From NCBI GenBank assembly GCA_031268655.1, contig JAIRWX010000021.1:4303-68302 (forward strand): a stretch of 64,000 nucleotides of DNA. The letters run 5' to 3'. This stretch comes from Helicobacteraceae bacterium (GTDB taxonomy: Bacteria > Campylobacterota > Campylobacteria > Campylobacterales > SZUA-545). A model generated the notes under the pieces. That model did not search any database. It had not been told where the DNA came from and saw nothing but the letters and a program-made list of their open reading frames with translations. The number at the start of each line of letters is the position of its first letter. Within the stretch, counting starts at the first letter, position 1. A program made the translations under genes and the position numbers. Positions 31,634-56,121 of this stretch are shown here, in pieces.

Positions 31634-32488
31634 TTGATTAAGGATTGTCGTTTGAAGCGTTTTTTTATTAGCCTGACGCTGATCGCTCTGAATCTTTTCG
31701 CGGACGATATCGACGAGCGCAAAACTATTCGCTTTGGCATCGCTCCGTTTAACTCCGCCTCCGGCATTGTGAAAACTCACCGCCCTTTGAGAGATTACTT
31801 GAGCGAGAAATTAGACGAGACCGTTACCATATACACCTCGGTCAACCATGAGAAGTTTTTGAGCGACGGAATTGAAAAACGTTTCGATATGATCGCCACT
31901 CCCGCTCACTTCGCCCCGTTTTTCTACGAAAAAGGCTATATCCCGCTGGTTAAGTACAAAACGCCGCTGGATTTTATTTTCGTCGTTCAAAAAGATAGTT
32001 CCATCAGAAAAATAAGCGATCTGAAGGGAAAACGAATCGGAATACCGGACTATCTTTCGCTCTACTACGTGGTCGGTTTACGCTGGTTAAAAGAGCGCGA
32101 GAATGAAATAGGCGGCGCGTACGCGCTGGTCGAGGAGCCAGGACACGCCGCCGCGATAGCGGCGGTCGCGGCGAATAAGATCGACGCGGCTATAACGGGA
32201 TCGCCGCCGTTTACGTTTTTGGAAGCAAACGTTCAATCTCGGCTCAGTTGGATAGAGCTGGAAAAGATCGAGCTTCCGTCGCTGATTACTATGGTTGACA
32301 AATCGCTGGGCGACGAGCGGATTGAAAAAATACGGGAGGCGCTTGAAACCTTTCACGCCACCGAGGCGGGCGCGGCATTTTTTCGCTCTTCAGGCTACAA
32401 CGGATACCTCAAGGCGACCAAAAAGGACGTAAACGCGGCGGATTCTTTCAAATACGACGTCGAGCGGGCGCTGAAGGATAAGCGATGA
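31634..32488 (+). CDS. Periplasmic substrate-binding protein, PhnD/phosphonate-ABC-like family, with no ABC partner genes
   Basis: Signal peptide ([16 protein letters not shown]), then [11 protein letters not shown] and a type 2 periplasmic-binding-protein-like layout. The TTG at 31652 after AGGA may be the true start. No permease or ATPase gene is nearby. Confidence 0.6.
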
Positions 32489-34857
32489 CCGGTATCTGGA
32501 ACAACTCTATACGCGCCAGGCTGCTTGTCGGGATCGGGGCGATTTGCGTTATCGTTTTTATCGCTTCCACGATCAACGCCGCGCGCTTGACCAACAATAG
32601 CATGACAACAGAGTTCGACGCGAGAATTCGCGCGATAGAGCACGCCTATCACACCGCCGCGGTTGGACCGCTGATTATACGCGACTATGCGACGCTGCGC
32701 GATATTTTTGAAACTTTCGCCGAAGCCGAACACATAAACTATATTGTCGTCGCCGACGCGGACGACCTCTCCGTGGCGGCAATTGGCAGAGGTCTTAGCG
32801 ATCCGTTGCCGATAGCGGGCGTTTACGATCGGGACAACGCGCTGATCAAACGAATTCCCGTTGAGTTTGAGGGTCAGACCTACGGCTACCTGTACATCTC
32901 GTTTTCGACGACCTTCATCGCGGAAGCCAGAAAAAAAATGCTGGAACAAGGCGTAGCGATCAGCGCGATTGGATTGATCATAATGCTGGCGGGAGTAGGT
33001 ATTATCGTGTTTTACTTGACGCGCAGCTTGAAACTGCTTATATCGGCGGGACATAGGGTCGGCGAAGGCAAATTTGACACCCGCATCGCGTTTAGCGGCA
33101 AAGACGAGATTGCCGCGCTCGCGCATAGCTTCAACGTTATGGCGGATAAAGTTCAAACGCACATTTACGCTCTCAGAAGAAACGAACAGAGATTTCGCGC
33201 GATCGCCGACTACACCTACGCTTGGGAAAGCTGGTTTGGCGTGGACGGACAGCTTAAATGGGTCAATCCCGCGGTCGAGCGGATCGCCGGTTACACGCCG
33301 AGCGAATGTATGGGAATGGCTGATTTTCCGCTTCCGCTTACGCACCCGCACGATTTAATGATTGTCAAACGGCAGCGGCAGCAGGCGCAGAACGGACAGA
33401 GCGGGCAGGATTTAGAGTTCAGAATTCGCAATAAACGCGGACAGGACGCATGGGTCGCCGTCTCTTGGCAGCAGATCTTCGCCGAAGACGGCAGGAAGCT
33501 GGGCTACCGTTCCTCGATACGCGACATAACCGTCCAGCGCAACACGACGGAAGAGCTGATCTATCAAGCCGATCACGACTCGCTTACCGGTCTCAACAAT
33601 CGCCGCGCTTTCGAGCGACAGCTTAAAACTACGCTTGACTGGGCGCGAAACGATAAGCGATCGGTGACGGTTTTATATATCGATCTTGATCAGTTCAAAG
33701 TGATCAACGACGTAAGCGGACACGTGGCGGGCGATCAACTGCTAATCAACGTGGCAAAGCTGCTGGCAAGTCATACCTCCTACGGATTTTTCTCTCGAAT
33801 GGGCGGAGACGAGTTTGCGATTTTGTTCCGCGATCTGGACTACGCGGAGGCTATGCGGCGCGCCAACGCCATTATAGACGAGATGCGCGGCTACATTTTT
33901 GTCTTCGGCGGTCGGACGTTTAAGATCGGCGTGTCGATCGGCGTCGTTATCGCCAGCGTCAACGTCAATACCTTAACGAAAATTCTTATTGCCGCCGACA
34001 CCGCCTGCTACGCCGCCAAAGAACGCGGCAGGAATCAGGCGGTCTTTTACGACGAAAGCGACGAATACTTCAAAATCCGCAACGAAGAGTTTAGCTCCGT
34101 AACCAATATCAACACGGCTCTGGCGCAGGGACGCTTTATGCTCTATTTTCAGCGCGTCGAGCCGATCAAAGACAACGAGACCAAGCATGCGGAGATACTG
34201 ATTCGACTAAGAGACTCAAGCGGCGCTATTCAAACGCCGGATCGATTCATCGGCGCCGCCGAGCGGTTTAATCTGATGCCCTATATCGATCGCTGGGTGG
34301 TGGACAGCGTTTGCCGCCAGATAGCGGAGTGGGACGCAAACGGCGTTATTTACGACGTGTATCGCTTCGCGATCAACGTTTCGGGCGCGAGTATTTCGGA
34401 CAGGGATTTTCCAGAATACGTAGCCGGTCGCATAAAAAAATATGGGATCAAACCCGATCGGCTGGTCTTTGAGATTACGGAATCCTGCGCCGTTACGCAG
34501 GTGGATCTCGCGCAGATCTTTATCGATCAGATGCACCAGTCAAACGCCTATTTGGCGCTGGACGATTTCGGAAGCGGTCTGTCGTCGTTTGCCTACCTGA
34601 AACAGTTTAAGGTGGACTATCTCAAAATAGACGGCAGATTCGTCAAAAATATCGACAAAGACAAATACGATCGCGCCGTCGTGGAATCGATGATCCAGCT
34701 TGCCAACGCATACGACTTGAAAACCGTCGCCGAATATGTGTGGAGCGACGACATTTATAAGATTGTCCGCGAGCTTGGCGTAACCTACGCGCAAGGATAT
34801 GCGTGCCATATTCCCGAACCGCTGATCAATCTTGCCGCAAGCGAGGAACGGCTATGA
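32485..34857 (+). CDS. Transmembrane sensor: TM-periplasmic domain-TM-HAMP-PAS-GGDEF-EAL
   Basis: Two TM helices flank about 140 aa, followed by HAMP (EIAALAHSFNVMADKV) and PAS. The GGDEF motif is intact (RMGGDEF). The EAL domain has EILIR and DDFGSGLSSFAYLKQF. The ATG overlaps the upstream stop (ATGA). Confidence 0.85.
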   Translation: MTGIWNNSIRARLLVGIGAICVIVFIASTINAARLTNNSMTTEFDARIRAIEHAYHTAAVGPLIIRDYATLRDIFETFAEAEHINYIVVADADDLSVAAIGRGLSDPLPIAGVYDRDNALIKRIPVEFEGQTYGYLYISFSTTFIAEARKKMLEQGVAISAIGLIIMLAGVGIIVFYLTRSLKLLISAGHRVGEGKFDTRIAFSGKDEIAALAHSFNVMADKVQTHIYALRRNEQRFRAIADYTYAWESWFGVDGQLKWVNPAVERIAGYTPSECMGMADFPLPLTHPHDLMIVKRQRQQAQNGQSGQDLEFRIRNKRGQDAWVAVSWQQIFAEDGRKLGYRSSIRDITVQRNTTEELIYQADHDSLTGLNNRRAFERQLKTTLDWARNDKRSVTVLYIDLDQFKVINDVSGHVAGDQLLINVAKLLASHTSYGFFSRMGGDEFAILFRDLDYAEAMRRANAIIDEMRGYIFVFGGRTFKIGVSIGVVIASVNVNTLTKILIAADTACYAAKERGRNQAVFYDESDEYFKIRNEEFSSVTNINTALAQGRFMLYFQRVEPIKDNETKHAEILIRLRDSSGAIQTPDRFIGAAERFNLMPYIDRWVVDSVCRQIAEWDANGVIYDVYRFAINVSGASISDRDFPEYVAGRIKKYGIKPDRLVFEITESCAVTQVDLAQIFIDQMHQSNAYLALDDFGSGLSSFAYLKQFKVDYLKIDGRFVKNIDKDKYDRAVVESMIQLANAYDLKTVAEYVWSDDIYKIVRELGVTYAQGYACHIPEPLINLAASEERL

Positions 34858-36962
34858 AAAACGCTCGCGCTAAATTTTTTAAAACTATCAGACTAGGCGG
34901 TTCAAACAAGGGCGCTATGGAGACCCTGCTGTTTGATCGCTGCCCTTTGCCCGCGTGCGTCGCCAAAGCCGACGACGGACGATTTCTTGCGATCAACGAC
35001 GCTTTTGCGAAACTATTCAAACTTGATCGGGACAACATATCAAAGATTAGCGTCCGCGACTTAAATCTCTGGATCGACAACAGAGTCGCGTCGGATTTCG
35101 TAAACGAAACGAGCGTAAGCGGACAGGCGACGAAGTTTGTCGTAGAGGTTGGCGGCGACGAAAAGAGAGACCTATACGAGATTTCTTCCGAGATTGTCGC
35201 GGTTAGTTCCGAGCGCGCGGTCGTCTCTTATTTGACCAATATAACCGATAAAAAGGCGCTCGACCTGAATTGCGATCAAATTTCCAAGCGATTCAACGAA
35301 CTGACCGACGTAATAAACGACTCCTATTTCCGCTGCGACGCAAGCGGCAAATTTACCAAAGTAAATCTCGCGTTCTGCGCGTTGCTCGGATACAGCGAAT
35401 ATGAACTGATTTCGACCTCTATAGACGGCATTTTGTCCTCCGGTCAGTATAAGCGCGATATAGAGACGCTGTATGCGAGAGAGGGCGATCGCGGCTACGC
35501 CGAGCCGATCGCGCAGGAGTGGATCAAAAGAGATAAAACCGCAGCGCAGATGGAGGTTTGCCTATTCGTATCTAAAAACGACAGAGGCGAACCAAACGGC
35601 TTCTGGGGCGTGGCAAGAGAAACAAACGAGCGCGTTAATATCGCGGAGGAAGAGGCGCTCAGGTACAACATGTATCACGATCCGCTAACCGAGCTGCCTA
35701 ACCGCTCGTGGCTTATCGATCGTCTTTACAGAATGACTAAACGCTCGCGCATCGCCGACGAGCAGATCGCGCTTTTATTTGTGGACGTATCAAAGTTCAG
35801 ACTTATTAACGACGCGCACGGCTATCTTTTTGGCGATTCGGCGCTTAAGGAGATCGCGAGGCTGATGGAATCGACGCTTAGATCGACGGACCTGCTTGTC
35901 CGCTTTGGCGGCGACGAATTTGCGATCGCGGTCTGCGCGCAACCAATCAATCGAAGCGCTTTCAGCGTTATAAGAAGATTGCTGCGCCTGTTCGACAAGC
36001 CGATCGCGATCAAGGACAAGCAGATTACGCTTTCGGCGCATATAGGCGTTAGCGTTTTCCCCAACGACAGCGCCGACGCGGATTCGCTGATCGCAAACGC
36101 TAAAGAGGCTTTGGCAAAAATTTCGACGAAAAACGAAAGCGCGTTCCATTTCATATCCGCCGAATTCGACAAACAATTTCACGAACGGATCGAGCTGGAA
36201 AAAGCGTTCGGAAACGCGCTCGCATCCAACGAGATCATCGCTTGCTACCAGCCGATCAACGAGTTTTCAGCGGACGGCAAACCGCGCCTTATAGGCTTGG
36301 AGGCGTATGTCAGATGGCTAAGTCCTACCTTTGGCGAATTAGCGCCAGACAACTTTATGGATATGGCGGAGGAGCTTGGCTTGGCGACCGATATCGATCG
36401 TAAAATATATGAGATTGCGTTAAGCAACCTATCGGAATGGATTAAAGAGGGACTATCGATCAAAGTTACCGTTAATCTGTCAAAAAACTCGCTTGAAGAC
36501 TCATCGTTTGCCAAGTGGGCGATCACTCTGGCGCAAAAGAAAAATATTGATCCGAAGCTGATATGTTTCGACGCGCGATACGGCTACTTTGTCAATGCGG
36601 AACGGGTGATTTACAAAACCGTTTCGCAGTTAAGCGAGGCGGGTTTTTACTTTTGCGCGGACGATTTCGGCGAAGGTATACTTCTGCTGGCGCGATTAAA
36701 ACAGATCGGGATTAACGCCGTCAAAATCGCGCCCAAACGGCTGCTGTTAATAAAAGAGTATGAAAACGACGAGTTTAACTCCCTGCGCTCGATAGAGCTT
36801 GCGGCGCGAACGATGGGATTCGAGTTTGCCGTCGCGGGCGTGGAGAGCGAATGGCTGGATCGTAAAGTCGGCGCGGCGGGCGCGAACATAAGGCAGGGCT
36901 TTTTGTACTCAAAGCCGCTTAACCCCAAAGAAGTAAAACAATACGCGCAAGGACTGAAATGA
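34854..36962 (+). CDS. Cytoplasmic PAS-PAS-GGDEF-EAL protein
   Basis: The GGDEF motif is intact (RFGGDEF), preceded by an RSTD I-site-like RxxD. The EAL domain has variant motifs EAYVR and DDFGEGILLL. ATGA overlaps occur at both ends. Confidence 0.85.
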   Translation: MKNARAKFFKTIRLGGSNKGAMETLLFDRCPLPACVAKADDGRFLAINDAFAKLFKLDRDNISKISVRDLNLWIDNRVASDFVNETSVSGQATKFVVEVGGDEKRDLYEISSEIVAVSSERAVVSYLTNITDKKALDLNCDQISKRFNELTDVINDSYFRCDASGKFTKVNLAFCALLGYSEYELISTSIDGILSSGQYKRDIETLYAREGDRGYAEPIAQEWIKRDKTAAQMEVCLFVSKNDRGEPNGFWGVARETNERVNIAEEEALRYNMYHDPLTELPNRSWLIDRLYRMTKRSRIADEQIALLFVDVSKFRLINDAHGYLFGDSALKEIARLMESTLRSTDLLVRFGGDEFAIAVCAQPINRSAFSVIRRLLRLFDKPIAIKDKQITLSAHIGVSVFPNDSADADSLIANAKEALAKISTKNESAFHFISAEFDKQFHERIELEKAFGNALASNEIIACYQPINEFSADGKPRLIGLEAYVRWLSPTFGELAPDNFMDMAEELGLATDIDRKIYEIALSNLSEWIKEGLSIKVTVNLSKNSLEDSSFAKWAITLAQKKNIDPKLICFDARYGYFVNAERVIYKTVSQLSEAGFYFCADDFGEGILLLARLKQIGINAVKIAPKRLLLIKEYENDEFNSLRSIELAARTMGFEFAVAGVESEWLDRKVGAAGANIRQGFLYSKPLNPKEVKQYAQGLK

Positions 36963-39317: not shown

Positions 39318-39560
39318 CTAATTCGTTAAGCGGACTAGATTGATCGCGCCCGTTATATCGTCAAAGCTTTTTTTGCCGGCCGCCGCGATCTTCCTGTATT
39401 CGTTTTCCCAACGGACGGGCTGTCCCCTGTCTTGAAGTATCCTCAGCGCGGATACGGGCAGCTGATCGCCGTAATAGTAGCGGTAGTGCGTTCTCGCTTC
39501 CTCGCGGCTTGTCTCGCTCTCCGTTATCGCTTCCTGTAACGATTCCCATAAATCTATCAA
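39318..39560 (-). pseudogene. Portal-protein-like N-terminal fragment (80 aa)
   Basis: YRYYYGDQLPVSALRILQDRGQPVRWENEYRKI resembles the YYxGxQW...L..RGQP...N..I motif near the N-terminus of several phage portal families. The ORF stops after 80 aa and there is no continuation in any frame. Confidence 0.35.
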
Positions 39561-39561
39561 C

Positions 39562-42500
39562 TCAGTTCCTTTGACTCGATATAAACATTCTCGTAAAACT
39601 CGGAGCCAACGGCGGTCTTTCGCGCAAGCCGAATAGTTTAACGACGCCGACGCTTCCTATCGCTCCCATCGCTCCTCGCCTAGGGTTATAGCTTATGTTC
39701 CCGTCCTCGTCCGTTTCAAACCCGGTCATACTTCCCAATATCGCCCCGCCGATATGCGGACTAGAATAAAGCGTCGTTCCCTCTTTTACCGCCTTCTCTT
39801 GACTTCTCGCCGCGCCCGCTGTAAAATTCTTCTTCTGAACCCCAAGCGGAAGAGCTTTTATGGTATCGATCCGCTTCCCTTGTTCCGCAGGGGCTTGCGC
39901 ATCGCCGATTGTCTGCGCATAGGGGTTCTTTTTATTCCTCGCGTCTTGATACGCGGTCAACAGCCAAGCGTCCCTTTCGTTTCGCTCCAAAGCTATAATC
40001 GCCGTCGTTTTTGTATCGACCAGCGCGATCTTGCCGCCTTGGCTTCGCGTCGGATCAACCGCGCTATTCGCTATCGTTTCGGGCAGCTTTCTAAGAAACT
40101 CCGTCGTCTTTGCCATATCGCCCTTATATTCCGAGCGCCGCTTTTCGATAATATGCGCCAAGCCGTAACCATTCGCTCCCTCTTTTCCCCAAACAAGATC
40201 GATATAGCCCGTTTCGGGGCGATAAAACGCGCCGCTTACTTCGCCCTTTCCAGCCTTAAGCATAAAATCTATTGAAAAGCGTCCCAGCCGTAAACGTTTA
40301 GATTTAAGACGATTGGTTAATCTTTCGGCTAACTCCGGATCGCCGTTCTCCGCGATTATCTCTTTAATATGCGTTTCAGTATTCGCAACGTCGTCTTTAA
40401 GCTGTCCTATCGTCTCTTTATCGATATAGAGCGGATCGGCTTTTATCCTTCTTGCCATCTCCGCTCTATCGACGCTTCCCTCGCGTTGCATAAGAGAGTC
40501 AAGCATAATAACGCCGTCGTCGCGTATTACTTCGTAATGACCCCTAAATCTTTCGTCCTCGATTAGTTCGGGATTCTTCTTGAATATCTCGTCCGTCTGT
40601 TTCGCCGTCCGCTTAGAGGCTAAACGGCTCTCTATATCCGCTTTGGTTAAGCCGTTGAGCTTAACGTCGTAAAAGTTCGTTTTGTTGTAACGTTTGCTGG
40701 TATGATGCCATTCTTTCATATCTAACGTTAATTGTTTCAGCAAGGGCGTGGGAAGTTTTTCAAGATCGGCTATTTCAATATCGGTATCTTCCGCGTCTTT
40801 TAATACCTCTTTCGCCCTATCTAATATATCTTTCCGCGTCCATTTAGAAAGAGGTTTTTTACCTTCGCCGTAAGCGGCGAGCGCGTTATTACTCATAGAG
40901 TAGTCGGGGCTGTAACCCGCTTTGATAATATCCGCGCCTCGCTCTTGTAAGTTAGCCGCCTTGTTAAAGCGCGTATTTGCTCTTGACGTTTGCGCGCCGA
41001 TCGGCGCTCCCTCTTTGGATAAACGAAACAGCTTAGGCGCATATGATACGCCAATCGCTCCAGCCAGCCCTTTCGCGGGGTTATAACGCAAAGCGCCCTC
41101 GTCGTCCGTTTCAAATCCCAAGCCAGAGCCGACTATCGCCCTAGCGGTTAGAGGATTAACAAAGCCTTTTCTCGCTTCCAACTCCGCCTCGCGCCGTTTA
41201 ATTATCCGCTCGATAACGCGGGCGTTAGGATACGGAGAGGTATTGCCCTCGAATAGCTCCGCCGCTTCTTGCGCGATATTAACGATTTCGCCGTCGTCTC
41301 TGTAATGCATCTCTTTCAAAGCGCGGTTAATCGCCGCGCTATCGCCCTCTTTTATATGCTCGATTATCTTGTCGTAGGCGTTGGGAGCGCCGCGTTTATC
41401 CGCCAGCTTTTGTATTTGTTCCGTAAAAGGCAGGGCGGCTTTATATATCAGCGTCTGTTCGGCTATCATTCGATCGTTGAGAGAAATAGACCCCGACGCG
41501 ATCGCCTCTTTGAACCTCTTTTGATTATCCAATCCCGCGAGCCGTATCAGTTTAACGTCCGAATCAAACTGCGCCGCTTCTTGAGTTAGTTTCTCATTTT
41601 GCGACGGCTCGCCCGCCTTTGCCGCCCCGTCCTTTTCGCGCAAATCTCTCGCCACCGCCTCGTCTATCTCTTGACTTCTCGCTCCCTCTTGCGCTATAGT
41701 TTCATTTCGGGCGGTCTGCGAGAGAGCTTGGTCATCTCGCGGGGCAACGGCGTTAGTGTCGATCCTCTTAACGCCGCCGTCTGTTTTATCAAACGCCGTT
41801 AAAAGCCACGTTTTTTTATCGCCCTTAAAATTAAGCTGAACGACCGCCCTATACCTATCATTCTGCAACACGACTCTATTATCCGTTACGCTTGTTATAG
41901 GCAGTTCGTTGATGATCTCCAGCTTATCCAGCATTTCGGGGTGAAACCGCTCTAGTTTCGCTATGCCCCAGCCGTCGCTATGCCCCGTTCCCGCTTCGCC
42001 CCACACAAGATCGATCTCGCCTATACGCCCGTCGCGCAGCGCGGCGGGCGCTTCGCCCTCCCGCGTTTGCAGCAGATGCGCCACAGCTTCGTTGGGTCTG
42101 CCCTCGAAGCCGCGCCAGATAGTTCCAAACGCCCCTTTTTCAGCGTCGGTCGTCTCGGCGCGGGGCGCGTTCATTCCCCGCTCCGCGTTCGCCGCGTCGT
42201 CTATCGCCCTTACTTTATTTGCAAGCTCCGCCAGCGCGATACTATCCCGCTCGCCGTAAAACTCCAGCGCCGCGTCGATACGATCAAACGGCGCGATCTG
42301 CTCTCCGAATAGGCTGCCCTGCCTGCTCTCGTCCGCCGCCTCGATAATCCTCTCTATGCCGCGTCCAAAATCCTCTACGCCGCCGTCTTTTAATCCGTTC
42401 AGCCGACGAAGCGCGACTCCCAGAATATCAGCCGCGAATTCGTCGCGTCCAATGATATTACCTTCTATGTCTTTTCCGTTGTAAGAGTCGATTAGCTCGT

Positions 42501-42666
42501 TGTATTCGGCGATAATCTCGTTGACGTTTTTGCGGGCGTTAGCTCCAGCCGTATTCATTCTATCCAGAGCCGTCGGCAGTATCGGGGTTATATCTATGTC
42601 GGCGTTCTCCGTCCGCTCCGCCATCTTGCGCAGGTTGAACAATTTGTGCGCGTTGCGGTTGATCAT
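39562..42666 (-). CDS. Giant multidomain protein of the phage/ICE polyvalent-protein type, internally duplicated
   Basis: 1034-aa uninterrupted ORF. It carries two copies of an IDLVWG...G(W/Y)G(I/L)A...WLLTA(F/Y) module (aa 178-296 and 806-908). It carries two copies of GFETD(D/E)xG..YNP..G..GAIG.....KLF (aa 512-547 and 973-1012). A SMSNNALAAYGEGKKPLSKW segment is also present. Confidence 0.55.
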   Translation of the reverse strand: MINRNAHKLFNLRKMAERTENADIDITPILPTALDRMNTAGANARKNVNEIIAEYNELIDSYNGKDIEGNIIGRDEFAADILGVALRRLNGLKDGGVEDFGRGIERIIEAADESRQGSLFGEQIAPFDRIDAALEFYGERDSIALAELANKVRAIDDAANAERGMNAPRAETTDAEKGAFGTIWRGFEGRPNEAVAHLLQTREGEAPAALRDGRIGEIDLVWGEAGTGHSDGWGIAKLERFHPEMLDKLEIINELPITSVTDNRVVLQNDRYRAVVQLNFKGDKKTWLLTAFDKTDGGVKRIDTNAVAPRDDQALSQTARNETIAQEGARSQEIDEAVARDLREKDGAAKAGEPSQNEKLTQEAAQFDSDVKLIRLAGLDNQKRFKEAIASGSISLNDRMIAEQTLIYKAALPFTEQIQKLADKRGAPNAYDKIIEHIKEGDSAAINRALKEMHYRDDGEIVNIAQEAAELFEGNTSPYPNARVIERIIKRREAELEARKGFVNPLTARAIVGSGLGFETDDEGALRYNPAKGLAGAIGVSYAPKLFRLSKEGAPIGAQTSRANTRFNKAANLQERGADIIKAGYSPDYSMSNNALAAYGEGKKPLSKWTRKDILDRAKEVLKDAEDTDIEIADLEKLPTPLLKQLTLDMKEWHHTSKRYNKTNFYDVKLNGLTKADIESRLASKRTAKQTDEIFKKNPELIEDERFRGHYEVIRDDGVIMLDSLMQREGSVDRAEMARRIKADPLYIDKETIGQLKDDVANTETHIKEIIAENGDPELAERLTNRLKSKRLRLGRFSIDFMLKAGKGEVSGAFYRPETGYIDLVWGKEGANGYGLAHIIEKRRSEYKGDMAKTTEFLRKLPETIANSAVDPTRSQGGKIALVDTKTTAIIALERNERDAWLLTAYQDARNKKNPYAQTIGDAQAPAEQGKRIDTIKALPLGVQKKNFTAGAARSQEKAVKEGTTLYSSPHIGGAILGSMTGFETDEDGNISYNPRRGAMGAIGSVGVVKLFGLRERPPLAPSFTRMFISSQRN

Positions 42667-42780: not shown

Positions 42781-44457
42781 TTATAGTTCCGTTTTCAAAA
42801 CCGCGCCGCAACTCGCATTGCTTACAAGCAGGCTGTAACGCTTAAGCCAGCTTGATTCGATAGGCTTTTTTAGCGGAACAAATCGCGCTCGACGCTTTGT
42901 GATCTCCTCGTCGCTCAAGTTTGCTTTGATAATGTTTTGATTGACGTTGATATAGATTTCGTCGCCGTCTTGCAACAGGGCGATCAGTCCGCCCTCGGCG
43001 GCTTCGGGCGAAATATGTCCGATTGCGGCGCCGCGAGTAGCGCCAGAAAATCTGCCGTCGGTAATCAACGCCACTTTGTCGCCAAGTCCCATTCCCATAA
43101 TAAGGCTTGTCGGCGACAGCATCTCTTGCATTCCAGGTCCGCCTTTTGGACCCTCGTAGCGCACAACCACGACGTTGCCCGCTCCTACCCTGCCCCGCGA
43201 AATTCCGTCGCTCGCCTCCGCTTCGGAGTTGAAACAGATCGCCGCGCCCGTAAATTCGCGCATTTTTGGATCGATCGCCGCCGTTTTAGCCACCGCGCCC
43301 TGTTCGGCGAGATTGCCAAATAAAATCGCTAGTCCGCCGACGGGCGAATAGGGATTATCCAGCGCGCGAATCACGTTCGGATCTTTCACAACTTTGCTCT
43401 TAATTCTTTCGCCCAGCGTCCCGCCTTCGATCGTAAGCGCGTCTAAGCGCAAGAAACCCAGATTGGATATTTCGTTCATAATCGCGCTAACTCCGCCTGC
43501 GTTGTGAACGTCCTCCATATGCACGCTGCTTAACGACGGCGCAATCTTGGCGATATGCGCCGTCTGTTTGCCGATCTCGTTGATCTTGCTAAGATCAAAA
43601 TCTACGCCCGCCTCGCGCGCGATCGCCAGCATATGCAAAACTGTGTTTGTGCTGCCGCCCATCGCCATATCTACGACGAATGCGTTATGAACGGCTTTTT
43701 CGGTTACAATCTCGCGGATTTTCGGCGCGCCCTCTTTTGCCATCCGCGCGATTCGCCGCGCCGCCTCGCGTAGCAGCGCCTCGCGTTCTTTCGTGAGCGC
43801 CAAAATCGTGCCGTTGCCGTCAAGGGCTACGCCCATCGCCTCGCACAAAGTATTCATGCTATTGGCGGTGAACATTCCGCTACAGCTGCCCCCGCTCGGA
43901 CAAGCGCGACACTCTATGTCTTTTAGCTCCTCGTCGCCGATCAACCCAAGCGTTTTTTTGCCCACCGCCTCAAATACGGAGTTGAGATCGATCGCCGTCC
44001 CGTCTTTAAGTCTGCCCGCTTTCATCGGACCGCCCGAAATAAAAACCGTCGGAACATTTACGCGCAACGCGCCCATAAGCATTCCGGGAACAATCTTGTC
44101 GCAGTTTGGAATGCAAAGAAGAGCGTCGAATTGGTGCGCGTTCATCATCGTCTCGACCGAGTCGGCGATCAGTTCGCGGCTTGGCAGCGAGTAGCGCATT
44201 CCGTCGTGAGCCATAGCGATGCCGTCGTCAACGCCGATCGTGTTAAACTCGAACGCGACGCAGCCAGCCTTTTCAATCTCTTCTCGCGCGATCTTAGAGT
44301 ACTCGCGCAGGAAAAAATGACCCGGAATAATATCCACCACGCTGTTTGCTATGCCGATAAACGGCTTGTCAAAATCCTCGTCCTTCAGTCCCGTCGCCCG
44401 CAAAAGCGCGCGATGCGGCGCTCTCTCGTAGCCTTTTTTGATAATATCGCTTCGCAT
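42781..44457 (-). CDS. ilvD: Dihydroxy-acid dehydratase
   Basis: IlvD/Edd signatures ([20 protein letters not shown]-type region as [14 protein letters not shown]). The start is taken at [11 protein letters not shown]. Confidence 0.95.
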
Positions 44458-44545
44458 AGAACAACCTCGTTTTGATTTACGCGGCAAATTATAGCCTTGC
44501 CTTAGTAACGGCGCGTTATGCGAAGTTGTATTTTTAATGTTGCTT

Positions 44546-44605: not shown

Positions 44606-44680
44606 GCGGGAATAGCTCAGGGGTAGAGCACAACCTTGCCAAGGTTGGGGTCGCGAGTTCGAATCTCGTTTCCCGCTCCA
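44606..44680 (+). tRNA. tRNA-Gly (GCC)
   Basis: Cloverleaf readable by eye: acceptor gcgggaa/ttcccgc, anticodon loop ttGCCaa, T-loop ggttcgaatc-like, encoded CCA. Confidence 0.9.
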
Positions 44681-44805
44681 ACGTAAACCGCGAAAGCGGG
44701 TAGCTTTGATTGCATTTGCGGCGTTGTTCCCAAGCTATTTGAGCGCGCCGACTAACCTATCCGCGCCGCGAGTAACTTAAGAATTAAAGCCTAGCGGACA
44801 AAAGC

Positions 44806-44893
44806 GCCCGAGTGGTGAAACGGTAGACACACAGGACTTAAAATCCTGAGGACGAATGCGTCCGTGCCGGTTCAAGTCCGGCCTCGGGCACCA
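44806..44893 (+). tRNA. tRNA-Leu (UAA)
   Basis: Acceptor gcccgag/ctcgggc, anticodon loop ctTAAaa, long variable arm, encoded CCA. Confidence 0.9.
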
Positions 44894-44938
44894 GACCTTT
44901 TACAATTGGAGGTTGTTCGTAACGCGCTAGACGTTTGC

Positions 44939-45012
44939 GGCGGCGTGGCCAAGCGGTAAGGCAAGAGCCTGCAAAGCTCTGACCCCCGGTTCGAATCCGG
45001 GCGCCGCCTCCA
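44939..45012 (+). tRNA. tRNA-Cys (GCA)
   Basis: Acceptor ggcggcg/cgccgcc, anticodon loop ctGCAaa, T-arm ccggttcgaatccgg, encoded CCA. Confidence 0.9.
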
Positions 45013-45104
45013 AATATTGTTTAACGCTCAAGTCCGCAGAACTTCGTTCTCGCCCCAATCGATTCGCCGTTAGCGACTTGGCGACAACGTTTGTTTAAGC
45101 GATT

Positions 45105-45194
45105 GGACAGATGGCCGAGCGGTTGAAGGCGCACGCCTGGAACGCGTGTATAGGATAAAACCTATCGAGGGTTCGAATCCCTCTCTGTCCGCCA
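45105..45194 (+). tRNA. tRNA-Ser (GGA)
   Basis: Acceptor ggacaga/tctgtcc, anticodon loop ctGGAac, long variable arm, encoded CCA. Confidence 0.85.
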
Positions 45195-45297: not shown

Positions 45298-46293
45298 CTA
45301 AACTTGCGACGAAAACGGCAGAGTTTGAACGAAGTTTGTCATAAAATCCCAATCGGGCTGGCGGTTTTTGGTGGGAAGTTTTAGAAACGATACTTTCATA
45401 CGGTTGCTGTCCCATTTGCGACCATAATTAAAACGATATTTTTCTTTACGAATAATGACTGCCAAAAACAGAGCAATACTTGGTACAAGCTTGAATTTTG
45501 GATAAAGCACATTTATATCATCAGAAGCATAAAATGGTTTTGGTTGGTAAAATGCTTCGCCAACAGAGCCGTTATAACTAACTGTGATTGTGTTCCCTTC
45601 GTGAATTGCGTCTTGTCCAATGTGATCGCGATAGCCGTTATTTTTATCTATGGCGGCAACGAATGGCGTGTCGCCTTGTTCAAAATCGGCTTCTACAAGA
45701 CGCTTGCCTTTTTTGACTTCAAAAAGCTCATCAAATCGGTATGTTGCCCACTCGGCAGTTTTTAATTCTGGCGTTGGTAAGTTTTGAGCTGGTTTTGTGA
45801 TTTTCGCTATCGTCTCAATATTTACTACTTGCTTCCATTCGTTTGGCATTAACGCTGGTACGAGAACCTTTTTTATACGGTCGCCTTTTGGCTTGCGATT
45901 GTAATTAAAACGGTATCTGTTTTTAGTAATGCAAAATGCGTAATAAAGTTTTTCTTCAATGGACATTTTTTGTTTTGGAAGTAAAACATAAATATCGCTA
46001 TTTGGCACAAATACCTCAGTGGAAACATAAGAGAAAGTGTGACTGCCTTGTCCATTAGTAGAAACATAAATTGTATCTGCTGGAAAAATATATTTGTCGT
46101 CAATAAAACGCTTATCAACAAACGCATCTATTGAAGTGTTTTGTTTGTGTGAAGGACGAATAAAATGTATATGGTTTTCTGATATTTTGGAATGTTCGCG
46201 TTCAACAGAATTAGACGCAATGCCCGACTTGAAGTTAAACAATTTTTGCAATTCTATTAGTTGCGTATTACTCATAATTGCCATGCGTCTCAT
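45298..46293 (-). CDS. Restriction-modification specificity subunit (two half-TRDs, BcgIB-like size)
   Basis: 331 aa with an internal duplication: KNRYRFNYNRKPKGDRIKKVLVP versus KEKYRFNYGRKWDSNRMKVSFLKLP. It overlaps the upstream methylase-nuclease gene. The real start may be MSNTQL at 46275. Confidence 0.75.
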   Translation of the reverse strand: MRRMAIMSNTQLIELQKLFNFKSGIASNSVEREHSKISENHIHFIRPSHKQNTSIDAFVDKRFIDDKYIFPADTIYVSTNGQGSHTFSYVSTEVFVPNSDIYVLLPKQKMSIEEKLYYAFCITKNRYRFNYNRKPKGDRIKKVLVPALMPNEWKQVVNIETIAKITKPAQNLPTPELKTAEWATYRFDELFEVKKGKRLVEADFEQGDTPFVAAIDKNNGYRDHIGQDAIHEGNTITVSYNGSVGEAFYQPKPFYASDDINVLYPKFKLVPSIALFLAVIIRKEKYRFNYGRKWDSNRMKVSFLKLPTKNRQPDWDFMTNFVQTLPFSSQV

Positions 46294-48133
46294 CTAAACC
46301 GCTAACCTTGAAAACAACAAATTTTTTTACTGCTTTAGCAAAATCATCGATCGTCAAATTGCTATAATCGGTTTCCATATAGGCTTCAGCGCACCATTCG
46401 TTATTGGCGGTTACATTTTTTAACACCGACAAGCCGGCGATATCTTTGTGATTGCGATAATTGGTAATCCATTGGCGTTTGATTTCGTTTTCAAATTTTC
46501 CGAATAGGTCAATACGTCCTTTGTTTTTACGCTTCACAAAGCCGTCGTTTTTATAGTAGCCAAAATAGACTTCTTTGTCGGCGGGGTGCGGACGCTTGGC
46601 GGTGAAAACTATAATACAACTAACGACGCCGACTTTGGAATTGAAAAACAACTCGTCGGGCATTGAAAAGACGGCTTCCAGCGTGTGATTTTTCAAAATC
46701 TTTTTCTTATATTCCCAAACTTTGCCGCTCGTTGCTAGGGCTTCTTGCATTGGCACAATGGCAACGCACTTTCCGCCTTGCGTTAAGCATTCCAAGTTAG
46801 CGAGAATAAACTCATATTCGTCCGTATCAGTTTTCTTATCTGCTTTGTATGGCGGATTAAGCAAACCGACATTAGGGTTTTGTTTTTTTACGGCAGATTT
46901 TATTTCATCATCGAAACAATCGCCCAAATAAATGTTGGTCTTACCATCTTGGTGTATGAACATATTTGAACAAGCAAGCGCAAAAATTTTATCGGAGTAT
47001 TCCACGCCGATAAGTTGATTTTGCTTGACGTTTTTAATTTTTTCGCTATCGCCTTTGGCGTCTTTAATCATTAAATTCATCGCCGATACCAAAAAACCGC
47101 CCGTGCCGGTGCAGTTGTCATAAACAATACTATCTTTATTAACTTCGGCGACTTCCGCCATAAACTCGGTGATATGCGGCGGAGTTAAAACAATTCCCAA
47201 ACCCTTATCGGAATTTGCATAGCGCAAAAACTCAATATAAAGCTGCCCCAAAACGTCAAAATATTCATGCGTTTTTATAAAATCTTTAATATTATCGTTA
47301 ATGTCGGCGATCACTTCTTTAAGCGCATCCTTTTTATTTGAAAGCGTAGAGTTTGTTTTTAAAAACGAAAAGCGCGCGTCTAAAACTTCAAGTTTTCTAT
47401 CGCCGACTTTACCATTTTCAAATTCGTTATGAACAGTTTTGACAAGATATTCTGCAAGTTGTTTTGCTTCTTTATAACTCGCGTAGGTTTTTACAAATCC
47501 TTCGTTTTCCAAAGCAATTAAAACGCAACTGATTAACAGCGCGCGCTCGTCTTCGGCAATTTTCCAGCTATGTAATTTTTCGTTAAGCGTTTTGGAAAAT
47601 ACCATTAAAGTTTGATAATCTTGACGGAACTTTTCGGGGCTTTTGATATAACCGTCGTATAAATCGCTTAGCGACAGAAGTTTGTCGGCGAAAATTGGCG
47701 TGGCGGTTTGTTCGCCTTTTAATTGGAGAAAATAGGAAACCTTGAGGGTTTGCGGGGTTTCGCCGCTTACGGCAATAGAGAGTACATCGTAATTTTTTGA
47801 GAGAAATGAACTATAAAGTTTTACGCCGTCCGCCGCGTAATCGTCGTATTGATCGCCAGTTTTGCTTTCATGATATTTAGTATCGGCTTTGCACTCGACG
47901 GCGACGATAAAATCAGAGTTTTTGCGAGATTGAATAATAAAATCGGGGCGACCCTTGCCGGAACCGTCTTTTTTGGAAGCCCCCGCAAGCGATTTTTTGA
48001 TTTTCTCGTTTTGGCTAGTTTGGCGTTCATAAATATAATCATGCAAATTAGCGCCGAGAGCTATGGCATCAGCGTGGTTTTTGACAAAATCTTCAAAGAT
48101 CGTTTCAGTATTAGCTTCATTCTTTGTAGACAT
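46268..48133 (-). CDS. Fused PD-(D/E)xK endonuclease / gamma-class N6-adenine methyltransferase (BcgIA-like RM subunit)
   Basis: The N-terminus has GRPDFII...VAVECKAD (a PD...ExK motif). SAM motif I is VYDNCTGTGGFLV and the catalytic motif is LLNPPYK. At 621 aa it has no TRD of its own. Confidence 0.8.
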   Translation of the reverse strand: MSTKNEANTETIFEDFVKNHADAIALGANLHDYIYERQTSQNEKIKKSLAGASKKDGSGKGRPDFIIQSRKNSDFIVAVECKADTKYHESKTGDQYDDYAADGVKLYSSFLSKNYDVLSIAVSGETPQTLKVSYFLQLKGEQTATPIFADKLLSLSDLYDGYIKSPEKFRQDYQTLMVFSKTLNEKLHSWKIAEDERALLISCVLIALENEGFVKTYASYKEAKQLAEYLVKTVHNEFENGKVGDRKLEVLDARFSFLKTNSTLSNKKDALKEVIADINDNIKDFIKTHEYFDVLGQLYIEFLRYANSDKGLGIVLTPPHITEFMAEVAEVNKDSIVYDNCTGTGGFLVSAMNLMIKDAKGDSEKIKNVKQNQLIGVEYSDKIFALACSNMFIHQDGKTNIYLGDCFDDEIKSAVKKQNPNVGLLNPPYKADKKTDTDEYEFILANLECLTQGGKCVAIVPMQEALATSGKVWEYKKKILKNHTLEAVFSMPDELFFNSKVGVVSCIIVFTAKRPHPADKEVYFGYYKNDGFVKRKNKGRIDLFGKFENEIKRQWITNYRNHKDIAGLSVLKNVTANNEWCAEAYMETDYSNLTIDDFAKAVKKFVVFKVSGLDETHGNYE

Positions 48134-48399: not shown

Positions 48400-48488
48400 C
48401 GGGCAGGTGGCAGAGCGGTTGAACGCATCGGTCTTGAAAACCGACGAGGGCAAAACCTCCGTGGGTTCGAATCCCACCCTGCCCGCCA
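48400..48488 (+). tRNA. tRNA-Ser (UGA)
   Basis: Acceptor gggcagg/cctgccc, anticodon loop ctTGAaa, long variable arm, T-arm gtgggttcgaatcccac, encoded CCA. Confidence 0.85.
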
Positions 48489-52905: not shown

Positions 52906-54117
52906 ATGCTTTACCGCCGCGCATTAAAGCCTTTCGCCGATCGACTAGGCGCGTTAGCGCTACTGATCGCGCTCGCGCCGATCTTCGCGCTAGTCGCGCT
53001 CGCCGTCCGCGTTAAGCTAGGAAGCCCCGTCCTGTTCAAACAGATCCGCCCGGGACTAAACGCGAAGCCGTTTGAAATTTACAAATTTCGATCTATGAGC
53101 GAAGAACGCGACGAAAACGGACGGCGTTTAAGCGACGAAGAGCGGCTTGGGCGGTTCGGGCGCGCTTTACGATCGCTAAGTTTGGACGAGCTGCCTCAGC
53201 TATTCAACGTGTTGCGCGGCGATATGAGTTTTATCGGACCTCGTCCGCTTTTGATGGAATATCTGCCGCGCTACAACGTTTCGCAAGCGACTCGACATAA
53301 CGTAAAACCGGGCATAACGGGACTGGCGCAGATAAACGGACGCAACGCGCAAAGCTGGCAAAAACGTTTTGAGAGCGACGTTTTTTACGCGCAAAATCTC
53401 GGTTGTCGGCTCGATCTGAAGATCGCGGCGCTATCGATTGTTAAAGTTTTGAAGCGAGACGGCGTAAGCGACGGAACCGCCGCGACAAAAGAGCCGTTTT
53501 TAGGCAACGGCGATCGCGTTTTTATCTATGGCGGCGGCGGACACGGGCGCGTAGTCGCGGATACGGCGAGACGCGCCGGGTTTAGGGTTGAAGGCTTTAT
53601 AGACAAAGATCCGTCAAGAGGCGTAAACCGCGAAATCTTTTTAGAAAAAGCGCGAGCGGAACGTTTTGCCGTGGCGCTTGGCGTTGGTAATAATGAAGCG
53701 CGTCAAGCAATCGCTAAATTTTTGCGCAAAGAGGGAGCGGAGATCGTCGCACTGATCGATCCCTCGGCGATTGTAGGTTCGTCGGCGCGTATCGGCGCGG
53801 GCGCGGTCGTCCTGCCAAACGCCGTCGTCAACGATCGCGCGCAAATAGAAGAGGGCGCGATCGTAAATTCCGGCGCGATCGTCGAGCATGAGTGCGTCGT
53901 CGGCGAGTACGCGCATATCGCCCCCAACGCGACGCTCGCGGGCGGCGCGAAAGTCGGGGCGCTGGCGAACGTGGGGATCGGCGCTTCGTTGATTCAAAAC
54001 GCCATTGTCGGCAGATCGGCGACGATCGGCGCGGGCGCGGTCGTTTTAGGCGAGATCGCCCCGTTTGCCGTCGCGGTTGGCGTTCCGTCCCGCGAGATCG
54101 ACAAAAAGCCGACCTAG
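52906..54117 (+). CDS. Fusion of PglC-like phosphoglycosyl transferase and PglD/NeuD-like hexapeptide acetyltransferase
   Basis: Residues 1-200 carry the bacterial sugar transferase motifs (FKQIRPGLNAKPFEIYKFRSM, DELPQLFNVLRGDMSFIGPRP). Residues 205-403 carry the NeuD-type Rossmann stub IYGGGGHGRVV plus hexapeptide repeats. Confidence 0.75.
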   Translation: MLYRRALKPFADRLGALALLIALAPIFALVALAVRVKLGSPVLFKQIRPGLNAKPFEIYKFRSMSEERDENGRRLSDEERLGRFGRALRSLSLDELPQLFNVLRGDMSFIGPRPLLMEYLPRYNVSQATRHNVKPGITGLAQINGRNAQSWQKRFESDVFYAQNLGCRLDLKIAALSIVKVLKRDGVSDGTAATKEPFLGNGDRVFIYGGGGHGRVVADTARRAGFRVEGFIDKDPSRGVNREIFLEKARAERFAVALGVGNNEARQAIAKFLRKEGAEIVALIDPSAIVGSSARIGAGAVVLPNAVVNDRAQIEEGAIVNSGAIVEHECVVGEYAHIAPNATLAGGAKVGALANVGIGASLIQNAIVGRSATIGAGAVVLGEIAPFAVAVGVPSREIDKKPT

Positions 54118-54121
54118 CGCG

Positions 54122-54970
54122 TTACGCAAATAACGTCGTCTCGCCGACCTCGCGTCGCATGTTTATAGCGCCGATCGGATAGTTCGCTATAAACAATTCT
54201 CTGCCGTTTTGATCGGAGGCTTCGGTTATATTGCGCATGCCGTAGATTTGCGTCCAAGATCTGATATTAGCGAAAGAAAAAAGCTCTCGTATGTATCTGC
54301 AATCGTCATAGGTGATCAGCCATTTATACGAGCAGTTTCTCATAATGTCGGCAAAACGTATATGATCAAACGATTTATGTAACTTTCCGTTCTTGCCGTA
54401 AAGCGAAGATTTTGCCGTAGAATAATATGGCGGGTCAAGAAATATAAAAACGTTTTCGCCGCTCTTTTTGACAATCTCTTCATAGTCCTTATTTGCAATC
54501 GCCGCATTGTCTAAAACGCCGTTTAAGTTGCGTAGCCTTTCGATGCTGCTATATGTAAATCTGCCCTTGAAAGCCGCCTCGCTGAACCCGCCGCTTAAGC
54601 TCGTGCCCGAAAAGGTAACGCGGTTATAAATAAAAAACGCCGCCGCCCGCTCTAAATCATTAAAGCCCTCTGTGTTTTCGTTTAGAAACCGATACAGCTC
54701 TTTGCCTACGCTGTATTCGTTTTTCCATTCAAGTATCTTTTCTATTAAACAATCGCCGTTTGCCTGTACCGCTTTCCAAAATAGATAAAGCTCCGCATAG
54801 AGATCGTTTATCCAGTATTTTTTATTAGGATACAGCTGTTTAAGATATATAAATACCGATCCTCCGCCCAAAAAAGGCTCTCTATACTCGTCAAATGGAG
54901 GAATCAGGTTTGCGATTGTCTTAATCGCCCTGCTTTTGCCGCCAGGATAACGTAGCGGGCTTTTGATCAT
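54122..54970 (-). CDS. Dam-like (alpha-class, D12) N6-adenine DNA methyltransferase
   Basis: LRYPGGKSR, motif I EPFLGGGSVF and motif IV FLDPPYY occur in the alpha order. Target specificity cannot be read from the sequence. Confidence 0.85.
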   Translation of the reverse strand: MIKSPLRYPGGKSRAIKTIANLIPPFDEYREPFLGGGSVFIYLKQLYPNKKYWINDLYAELYLFWKAVQANGDCLIEKILEWKNEYSVGKELYRFLNENTEGFNDLERAAAFFIYNRVTFSGTSLSGGFSEAAFKGRFTYSSIERLRNLNGVLDNAAIANKDYEEIVKKSGENVFIFLDPPYYSTAKSSLYGKNGKLHKSFDHIRFADIMRNCSYKWLITYDDCRYIRELFSFANIRSWTQIYGMRNITEASDQNGRELFIANYPIGAINMRREVGETTLFA

Positions 54971-55755: not shown

Positions 55756-56056
55756 AAAAGAAACGCTCCCGCTGCAAAAAATCTCGATCGCCGTCTTTTC
55801 CTTCGTCTTTAACTATGGGAATAACGGCGATTTTTTTAGCGTAATTAAGCGAGTTATAGACTCTTTCGTAGGGATACGATCGCGTTCGTTTGGGCGATAC
55901 CCATTTTGAAACGGCGGCGACGTATGTTCCGTCCTTTACGGCGCAACAAGAGGGCGATTGGTTCACGTCAAACGAGACGAGATCGCGTTGCGGTAAGGAT
56001 TCGCCAAGAAACGTTTTATATTTAATAACGCCCGTAACCCGCCCTTGAACTCCCAT
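55742..56056 (-). CDS. Putative restriction endonuclease, N-terminal part or separate small subunit
   Basis: 104 aa with a strong Shine-Dalgarno (GGAGGGA 5 nt before the ATG). It overlaps the next ORF by 14 nt in another frame. That fits either a frameshifted single gene or a coupled pair. Confidence 0.4.
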   Translation of the reverse strand: MGVQGRVTGVIKYKTFLGESLPQRDLVSFDVNQSPSCCAVKDGTYVAAVSKWVSPKRTRSYPYERVYNSLNYAKKIAVIPIVKDEGKDGDRDFLQRERFFYVFA

Positions 56057-56121
56057 AACGTCCCTCCGCTAAAATTTAGTTGTTTATTGTATGCTATCAA
56101 CAATTTATCGGACGCAAAGCA

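Follow-up and report, generated by a model that had tools for sequence, protein, structure and literature searches.

We analysed a window of 64,000 nucleotides from a Helicobacteraceae bacterium (contig JAIRWX010000021.1, positions 4,303 to 68,302 of the forward strand; "the window" below means this whole stretch) and describe here its giant open reading frame (ORF), which lies on the minus strand (39562-42666) and, according to the ORF list and its translation, encodes a protein of 1034 aa. The identity and origin of this protein, a phage-type polyvalent protein left behind in a prophage remnant, are in our view very probable. The fuller explanation, in which the ORF encodes a polyvalent effector protein of a bacteriophage, now orphaned, that would act by the mechanism proposed in the last section, is the one towards which we lean, if with reserve.

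The protein contains two effector-type domains, both of them PBECR1, plus a mid-domain and two copies of a glycine-rich hairpin module. It is a mosaic: each of its modules is found again in giant polyvalent proteins from podovirus-like prophages of the Campylobacterota type. From the N- to the C-terminus, the order is an N-terminal extension, a PBECR1 domain with a K/H/T active site, a helical spacer, a hairpin, the mid-domain, a PBECR1 domain with an H/R/T active site, a linker, the second hairpin and a 20-aa tail.

The PBECR1 domains and their active sites

A sequence-only reading of this DNA had described two divergent copies of one module in the ORF (39631-42135, corresponding to aa 178-1012) and had suggested a BECR-fold, RNase-like domain of the kind reported in polyvalent proteins. 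The repeat and the domain family were both borne out, the BECR fold being a prediction. When the copies were scanned separately against the Pfam PBECR1 model (PF18809, gathering cut-off 27.6 bits), copy 1 matched over aa 214-296 with 28.2 bits, marginally over the cut-off, and copy 2 over aa 813-911 with 54.7 bits; the whole protein reached 71.4 bits in two stretches. Hidden Markov models (HMMs) made in this analysis found exactly two PBECR1 domains, at aa 178-298 and 797-913, in agreement with the start at about aa 178 first proposed for copy 1, although the letters then quoted began at aa 204. Self-alignment stood well above shuffled controls, with a Smith-Waterman score of 103 between the modules against 27.6 +/- 4.9 in 1000 shuffles (z = 15.4), and BLASTP of the N-terminal half against the C-terminal half aligned the modules at E = 4e-9. 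Copy 1 is taken here as aa 178-300 (41767-42135, minus strand) and copy 2 as aa 790-914 (39925-40299, minus strand).

AlphaFold models, built with alignments, gave a pLDDT of 96-98 for copy 1 and >90 for copy 2, and the order of helices and strands was identical in both. K237 and H838 occupy equivalent helix positions, as do H242 and R843, and T290 and T904 fall in the last strand. The best Foldseek matches of both domains in the PDB were BECR toxins (RelE, ParE, HigB, CdiA-CT and T4 RegB), and seven phage proteins of the BFVD database matched at E = 2e-9 to 2.5e-6. All together, the profile scores and alignments indicate that both modules are PBECR1 domains of the polyvalent-protein kind. We know of no PBECR1 member with demonstrated activity. 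PBECR domains in polyvalent proteins, repeated and shuffled ones included, have already been described (Iyer et al. 2017, PMC5512222); the endoribonuclease activity of PBECR1 is a prediction in that work as well as in a second study, which includes the PBECRs in a colicin-like BECR group in which a semi-conserved Lys precedes the catalytic His (bioRxiv 10.64898/2026.08.28.747851).

Distinct PBECR1 domains, 124 at first and 171 in the end, were gathered through queries seeded from the giant protein and aligned. They share a helix motif, G-L-A-[K/H]-I-x-x-x-[H/R]-P-E, and a strand motif, W-L-L-[T/S], and in this seeded sample they fall into three classes: K/H/T or K/H/S (117 of 171), H/H/T or H/H/S (26) and H/R/T (21). 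In each classified domain, His fills at least one of the two helix positions, and the strand column is Thr in 90% and Ser in 9% of cases, in keeping with the definition of the family by Iyer et al. (2017); T290 and T904 both lie within W-L-L-T in the last predicted strand. Copy 1, with K237 (codon 41956-41958), H242 (41941-41943) and T290 (41797-41799), all on the minus strand, belongs to the consensus, majority class; the site of H242 is His in all of the 171 domains except the 21 of the H/R class. This arrangement fits the colicin-like pattern of a His preceded by a semi-conserved Lys. Copy 2, with H838 (40153-40155), R843 (40138-40140) and T904 (39955-39957), also on the minus strand, belongs to the rarest class and carries, behind the catalytic helix, an insertion of 11 residues. 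H838 precedes by five residues R843, which stands at the canonical His position; in the AlphaFold models H242 and H838 lie in, or at the end of, a predicted helix. Both the signature of copy 2 and its insertion recur in five other proteins (P0104, P0168, P0170, P0187 and P0221). Neither copy looks degenerate, since copy 1 has the consensus arrangement and copy 2 a recurrent one, and both predicted RNase domains are probably catalytically competent.

The two copies are only 26.5% identical to each other. Copy 1 is nearer to other family members, with 49-53% identity to P0021, P0003, P0002 and Bbp10 of phage BPP-1 (about 50% for Bbp10), than is copy 2, which shares 35-39% with P0059, P0096 and P0104; the contigs of the closest copy-1 homologues (P0002, P0003 and P0006) are short and lack a portal gene, showing only an integrase and an element of the IS21 type. 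Likewise, the first hairpin motif is 58-62% identical to motifs of P0201 and P0258 and the second 46-56% to motifs in P0004, P0177 and P0188. Recent tandem duplication, within the gene, of a single PBECR1-plus-motif unit could account for the alignment of the two halves over 292 aa (24% identity, E = 4e-9) and for that of the motifs (E = 8e-10). It is nevertheless extremely improbable, because the copies resemble domains elsewhere (35-53%) more than each other, the motifs are nearer to foreign motifs (56-62%) than to their partner (48%), the active sites belong to different classes and the 11-aa insertion is present in copy 2 only. The two-fold look of the protein comes instead from two cassettes, each an effector domain with its hairpin, that differ in ancestry. 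The sequence-only reading had further taken copy 2 (LAHIIEKRR) to be active and copy 1 (K...RFH) to be degenerate, which in a wider form would make copy 1 dead or able to bind RNA only. The higher Pfam score of copy 2 (54.7 against 28.2 bits) favours this idea, and inactive PBECR domains do exist, for instance in Mu gp30 (Iyer et al. 2017, PMC5512222). We consider it very unlikely, given that copy 1 has the K/H/T configuration of 117 of the 171 domains and keeps H242 where the His usually stands and where copy 2 has Arg; moreover, copy 1 shares 49-53% identity with many family members, both solo and fused, is modelled at a pLDDT of 96-98, and shares the strand-4 Thr with copy 2. If anything, copy 1 would be the canonical copy, the reverse of the earlier assignment.

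The predicted glycine-zipper hairpin and the remaining modules

Behind each PBECR1 copy, at the unequal distances already noticed in the first description (about 215 aa for copy 1 and about 68 aa for copy 2), stands a glycine-rich motif containing GFETD. That this motif is repeated is clear from a Smith-Waterman score of 108 against 23.3 +/- 4.5 in 1000 shuffles (z = 18.8) and from the comparison of the two halves by BLASTP (E = 8e-10), but "near-identical", as the pair had been called, is too strong: 20 of 37 positions are identical (54%), and BLASTP gives 48% over 48 aa. The HMM scan that delimited the PBECR1 domains found exactly two hairpin motifs: motif 1 at aa 500-549 (41020-41169, minus strand), with the core IVGSGLGFETDDEGALRYNPAKGLAGAIGVSYAPKLF at aa 511-547, and motif 2 at aa 962-1014 (39625-39783, minus strand), with the core ILGSMTGFETDEDGNISYNPRRGAMGAIGSVGVVKLF at aa 976-1012. 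Motif 2 ends 20 aa before the C-terminus.

Both window copies were modelled as helix, beta-hairpin and helix, with a central pLDDT of 85-92. In the model of motif 2 (central pLDDT about 89), a helix at 970-982 is followed by strands at 983-985 and 991-993 and by a second helix at 995-1011. Across 118 motif instances, the two 12-residue arms contain 0.1-0.4% charged residues and 32-39% Gly, with a mean Kyte-Doolittle value of 1.4 and about three small-xxx-small pairs per arm, and the loop is 37% charged. The arms, which in the window read TARAIVGSGLGF/GLAGAIGVSYAP and IGGAILGSMTGF/GAMGAIGSVGVV, are joined by an acidic beta-turn, E-x-D-E-x-G-N. We thus describe the motif, on the strength of its predicted structure, as a putative glycine-zipper helical hairpin with an acidic turn, about 50 aa long, conserved and phage-restricted. 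Pfam, NCBIfam and PHROG families gave no match to it, and no Pfam model covers the hairpin even at E <= 10. Two readings of its conserved residues were tried and not adopted. The acidic turn, E23-x-D25-E26-[NED]27-G28-N29-[ILV]30, fits positions 1, 3, 5, 6 and 8 of an EF-hand loop, but has Glu at position 1, and Pro at position 12, where an EF-hand has Glu; this is a partial pattern without a Pfam EF-hand match, which makes the canonical EF-hand reading doubtful. Autocleavage at the Asp/Asn-Pro step, for which FrpC-like self-processing was the model, is weakened by the nearest variants, where the Pro is replaced by I, L or A, and by Ser at the D/N position in 14% of motifs.

To search for the motif we used a profile of four sequences, the two window copies and two from Campylobacter upsaliensis; a word-index homologue search with a two-sequence motif profile had found nothing. 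An exhaustive HMMER search of 1.84 billion representative proteins returned 220 clusters at E <= 1e-3, of which 68 reached E <= 1e-10, with the consensus [YF][HY]SNPH[IL]GAGL[VL]GG.L.G[VLI]E[TQ]DE[NED]GN[IL].F[DN]P.KFA.GFLGG..GSKAV and near-invariant residues at G21, E23, D25, E26, G28, N29 and G40. Polyvalent proteins from Helicobacter/Campylobacter-type prophages make up most of the clusters, and many are 1000-3400 aa long and some have two copies of the motif; the named relatives come from Helicobacter, Campylobacter and metagenome-assembled genomes (MAGs) of Helicobacteraceae. The first description had proposed looking for the motif in phage and ICE proteins, and by tblastn the consensus was present in 61 Helicobacter prophage records and in 0 of 72,556 plasmids, a result on which an origin from a conjugative element was rejected. 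Twelve IMG/VR contigs of 23-49 kb carry the motif in ORFs of 570-2936 aa. The domains that accompany it are PBECR1, PBECR2, PBECR3, ART-PolyVal, LPD3, LPD23, LPD38, ddrB-ParB and DUF3519. In 40 of the 43 proteins with both a PBECR1 and the motif, the motif stands behind the first PBECR1, and it often lies 27-110 aa after a PBECR1 or ART domain; in the giant protein and in three independent IMG/VR ORFs (L098, L099 and L100) it lies 18-20 aa from the C-terminus.

The genes around these relatives point to the virion. Relatives in prophages and IMG/VR contigs adjoin capsid, portal, gp10-like and tailspike genes, and the prophage of P0127 has capsid, adaptor, P22_portal and integrase genes. Two hairpin-bearing proteins, P0150 and P0177, are encoded between Phage_stabilise (P22 gp10-like) and tailspike genes (L090, 10001-15730, and L092, 6165-11303); they carry LPD38 with or without ART-PolyVal and no PBECR1. 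Polyvalent proteins can, it seems from this, stand in for the classical ejection proteins of P22-like podophages or extend them. Among PBECR1 proteins, BPP-1 Bbp10 is encoded in a structural cassette, in a position loosely comparable to the ejection-protein slot: next to it is Bbp11, an endolysin that contains a transglycosylase, and close by is Bbp12, an internal virion protein. The DarB-like gp21 of Agrobacterium phage Atu_ph08 (4877 aa) is encoded near the portal gene.

As a separate observation, the short sequence [DE]-I-I-[PA]-Q occurs about 10 times more often than expected in the hairpin-bearing giants P0127-P0275 (82 occurrences against 7.7 +/- 2.6 in shuffles), in 49 of 149 proteins, and might be the signature of a linker or of a protease site. 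The nearest sequence in the window is NETIAQEG, at about aa 321-328 (about 41683-41706).

The remaining modules are less well characterized. The N-terminal region (aa 1-177; 42136-42666, minus strand) received no family assignment and had no match in Pfam, NCBIfam or PHROG. Its residues 32-177 extend a match to Atu_ph08 gp21 upstream of that protein's PBECR1, so that aa 32-357 align with gp21 aa 1671-1976 at 31.7% identity (E = 3e-26, tblastn and BLASTP). The spacer (aa 301-499; 41170-41766, minus strand) is modelled as a short low-confidence stretch followed by long alpha-helices at model residues 175-361 (pLDDT about 55-80), and the linker behind copy 2 (aa 915-961; 39784-39924, minus strand) as disordered, with pLDDT <50 at model residues 127-162 and 168-178. 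Between motif 1 and copy 2 lies the conserved mid-domain (aa 556-789; 40300-41001, minus strand), which reads YSPDYSMSNNALAAYGEGKKPLSKW...EWHHTSKRYNKTNFYDV. It is 36% identical over 250 aa to the related protein P0238, where it likewise stands directly behind a hairpin, and 40% identical over 115 aa to a polyvalent protein of Helicobacter sp. CLO-3; the phage contig MT836402 also matches it, and Pfam, NCBIfam and PHROGs do not.

As a whole, the giant protein stands alone. In a search of 5.8 billion clusters, no full-length relative was among the matches listed other than the window's own sequence (P0001), and the five foreign matches cover merely 11-16% of the ORF. No orthologue was found in 185,579 species-representative genomes. 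PDB sequences gave nothing meaningful and NCBIfam nothing, and PHROGs gave unnamed families only, over the PBECR1 regions; Pfam detected neither a peptidase domain nor a MuF (Phage_Mu_F) domain in the protein.

The chromosomal locus

One nucleotide past the stop of the giant ORF begins a truncated P22-like portal ORF of 80 codons (39318-39560, minus strand), of which the first 55 or so codons are the N-terminus of a portal protein. The stub matches positions 3-54 of the 594 of the P22_portal profile (PF16510, E = 4e-7) and the portal family phrog_156 (E = 2e-7), and it is 33% identical to residues 7-60 of the portal of the P0127 prophage, the homology stopping at about 39396. No portal homology was found elsewhere in the window. 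On one flank lie a cmoB-like methyltransferase gene and a thioesterase gene, on the other ilvD/edd, the giant ORF being 115 bp downstream of ilvD (42781-44487, minus strand) and on the same strand; within 10 kb on either side of the giant ORF we found no other phage genes. The locus is a prophage remnant, because the giant gene abuts a portal stub of about 55 codons and the pair is set between housekeeping genes. The portal stub marks the scar of a deletion in the prophage, and the tight junction between the giant gene and the portal gene looks native to the ancestral phage. In this otherwise deleted prophage, the 3.1-kb ORF is intact.

The giant ORF has a GC content of 0.519 and a GC content at third codon positions (GC3) of 0.568, near the values of host genes; at 52%, the GC content of the window seems high for Campylobacterota, although its pgl-like genes are in keeping with this phylum. 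IlvD finds matches of 50-70% identity among the species-representative genomes, the best in Campylobacterota MAGs. A scan for promoters and terminators returned no minus-strand sites, with totals not above shuffled expectation, and no candidate gene for immunity or an antitoxin adjoins the giant ORF.

Elsewhere in the window, a low-GC island (45298-48133, minus strand; GC 0.37-0.40, GC3 0.33-0.42) carries genes for a type I-like specificity subunit and for an N6-adenine methyltransferase, with no restriction subunit evident. It is flanked by tRNA-Ser(gga) (45105-45194) and tRNA-Ser(tga) (48401-48488) and adjoins a cluster of tRNA genes for Gly, Leu, Cys and Ser (44606-45194). A second low-GC patch (54122-56056, minus strand), with a D12 (Dam-like) DNA methyltransferase and two ORFs without family match, has a PglC/PglD-like fusion gene (52906-54117) on one side and a gene for a DegT-type aminotransferase (56080-57228) on the other; a small restriction-modification element may have inserted here into a locus for glycosylation. 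Finally, two tandem PAS-GGDEF-EAL genes, encoding 790 and 719 aa and overlapping by about 55 nt, occupy 32485-36962 on the plus strand and are unrelated to the giant ORF.

Proposed mechanism, alternatives and known systems

The ancestral protein would have been carried inside the capsid and ejected along with the DNA, since relatives hold the slot of ejection proteins between gp10-like and tailspike genes. Both PBECR1 domains would act as metal-independent endoRNases, with catalysis by the helix His, a Lys or Arg five residues away and the last-strand Thr; His and cation would have swapped places between copy 1 and copy 2. The hairpins would act in membrane insertion or oligomerisation, anchoring or translocating the ejected cassette at the cytoplasmic membrane. 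This membrane role, which we propose by analogy, is possible but doubtful. We would put forward only tentatively, and as rather doubtful, the bolder idea that the hairpin is an autonomous, previously undescribed delivery module (SNPH-GxGxxGG-x3-G-x-E-x-D-E-x-G-N-x2-F-[DN]-P-x-K-F-x2-G-x2-G-G) that inserts in or permeabilises the host cytoplasmic membrane, possibly gated by Ca2+, as a phage counterpart of the translocation of Tde1.

The giant protein belongs to a class known from earlier work, the phage polyvalent proteins that carry PBECR RNase domains, and duplicated modules alone are ordinary in it. Like BPP-1 Bbp10, Atu_ph08 gp21 and the jhp1044-type giants of Helicobacter and Campylobacter, the protein combines several effector-type domains in one polypeptide, and it has in common with them the His and Thr signature, a phage origin and virion-gene neighbours. 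It differs in being small (1034 aa), in having PBECR1 as its only recognised effector domain type and in being stranded in a chromosome beside a truncated portal gene; moreover, it has two hairpins, whereas Bbp10 and gp21 have none. MuF/SPP1 gp7-PBECR fusions and the MuF polymorphic toxins of temperate phages are likewise associated with the phage head and contain BECR RNase domains, and their genes adjoin that for the portal. MuF-type genes are found downstream of the portal gene, whereas the giant gene is upstream of it, and no MuF domain was detected in its product.

Closer to the proposed mechanism are the ejection proteins of podoviruses, which are packaged, pass through portal and tail, refold and insert into the inner membrane or envelope, those of the gp16 type having putative membrane segments (PMC8954989). 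P22 gp7, gp20 and gp16 and T7 gp14, gp15 and gp16 occupy the same gene slot as the hairpin-bearing P0150 and P0177. We detected no similarity to P22 gp7, gp20 and gp16 or to T7 gp14-16 by sequence, Pfam, PHROG or NCBIfam; the hairpin arms, of about 12 residues, are shorter than the predicted transmembrane helices of ejection proteins, and the window gene is no longer within a structural module, of which only the portal stub survives. In Tde1, a DNase of the type VI secretion system (T6SS), a glycine zipper permeabilises the cytoplasmic membrane of the target and is needed for entry (Ali et al. 2023, PMC10240207). The likeness lies in a nuclease-type effector joined to consecutive GxxxG-type repeats, as in the small-xxx-small pairs of the almost chargeless hairpin arms. 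In contrast to Tde1, to which it has no detectable homology, the hairpin is two-armed with an invariant acidic E-x-D-E-x-G-N turn and is C-terminal to the effector, the Tde1 zipper being N-terminal, and delivery would be by a phage and not by a T6SS.

Several observations weigh against the explanation as a whole. RNase activity, packaging and membrane association of the giant protein and of its hairpin-bearing relatives are predicted properties. Copy 1 barely passes the Pfam cut-off (28.2 against 27.6 bits), and the Foldseek matches in the PDB are individually weak (E = 0.02-1, none <=1e-3; TM 0.3-0.5). The class frequencies are biased, because both the domain set and the motif set were gathered with queries seeded from the giant protein. 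With about 12 residues between charged or polar ends, each hairpin arm falls short of the length of a bilayer-spanning alpha-helix, and the Pfam glycine-zipper families do not match the motif. Nor is the hairpin needed for every virion-borne PBECR1 protein, since Bbp10 and gp21 lack it. At the locus, the giant gene is directly upstream of the portal gene, unlike in the relatives with visible context, and an intact ORF in a deleted prophage may now serve the host in some other way.

Some of these points lead to other accounts of the hairpin and of the gene. The hairpin might be an encapsidation or docking signal that binds the procapsid interior, the portal or the scaffold, so that each cassette is packaged, much as the P22 scaffolding protein binds through its C-terminal helix-loop-helix, or in the manner of capsid-targeting sequences. 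This would suit a phage-restricted motif that lies 18-20 aa from the C-terminus here and in L098, L099 and L100, in a gene adjoining a portal gene, with arms too short for a true transmembrane hairpin; yet near-chargeless, very Gly-rich arms would be unusual for a soluble protein-protein docking unit, many proteins carry the motif internally and some carry it twice, and virion-borne PBECR1 giants such as Bbp10 do without it, so that we regard docking as somewhat unlikely. Still less do we expect the motif to be a punctuation or processing site, cut by a phage or host protease or autocatalytically at the conserved Asn/Asp-Pro so as to free the effector domains once delivered. Proteolytic processing of polyvalent proteins has been proposed (Iyer et al., PMC5512222), the motif typically lies 27-110 aa behind an effector domain (PBECR1 or ART-PolyVal), and F-[D/N]-P is conserved (Pro in 93%) beside a loop resembling an acidic Ca-binding loop. 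A cut 20 aa before the C-terminus would free nothing useful, however, and about 50 conserved residues with a predicted fold far exceed the needs of a cleavage site; in addition, the nearest variants have YNI, YNL or YNA in place of the Pro and 14% of motifs have Ser at D/N, the giant protein has no peptidase domain, and [DE]-I-I-[PA]-Q, with its roughly 10-fold enrichment in relatives, is a better linker or cleavage candidate. Taken together, these points make processing distinctly unlikely. Compatible with an origin as an orphaned phage effector is the idea of domestication, in which the host has kept the ORF as a toxin or abortive-infection RNase, or for another cellular function. In its favour, 3.1 kb of coding sequence are uninterrupted where the portal is cut to 55 codons and the other phage genes are gone, the GC and GC3 values are host-like (0.519 and 0.568, compared with a GC3 of 0.33-0.42 in the foreign restriction-modification island), and the ORF follows ilvD by 115 bp on the same strand. 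Against this stand the lack of an adjoining immunity or antitoxin candidate and of a promoter-like site on the minus strand, and the lack of an orthologue, hence of any sign of conservation, in the 185,579 species-representative genomes; a recent deletion accounts equally well for the intact ORF. We therefore consider domestication unlikely.

The reading of the giant ORF as an orphaned phage polyvalent effector has consequences beyond this locus. It means that one polyvalent gene can persist intact after the rest of the prophage has gone, in which case it would otherwise be annotated as a mysterious chromosomal giant gene, and the locus also bears on the possible domestication of phage RNase effectors. 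The sampled PBECR1 domains split into three classes, in which His and a cationic partner (Lys or Arg) trade places on the catalytic helix; the giant protein, which holds one domain from each extreme class, offers a natural pair for tests of the mechanism. The hairpin, present in at least 220 protein clusters and found behind effector domains in giants placed like podovirus ejection genes, is a testable candidate for how effectors get packaged, anchored or moved across a membrane. If it did prove to be a delivery module, it would let the RNase or ADP-ribosyltransferase cassette joined to it enter the cell or be anchored there, and would explain how the functions of conduit and effector come together in polyvalent proteins that occupy the ejection slot.

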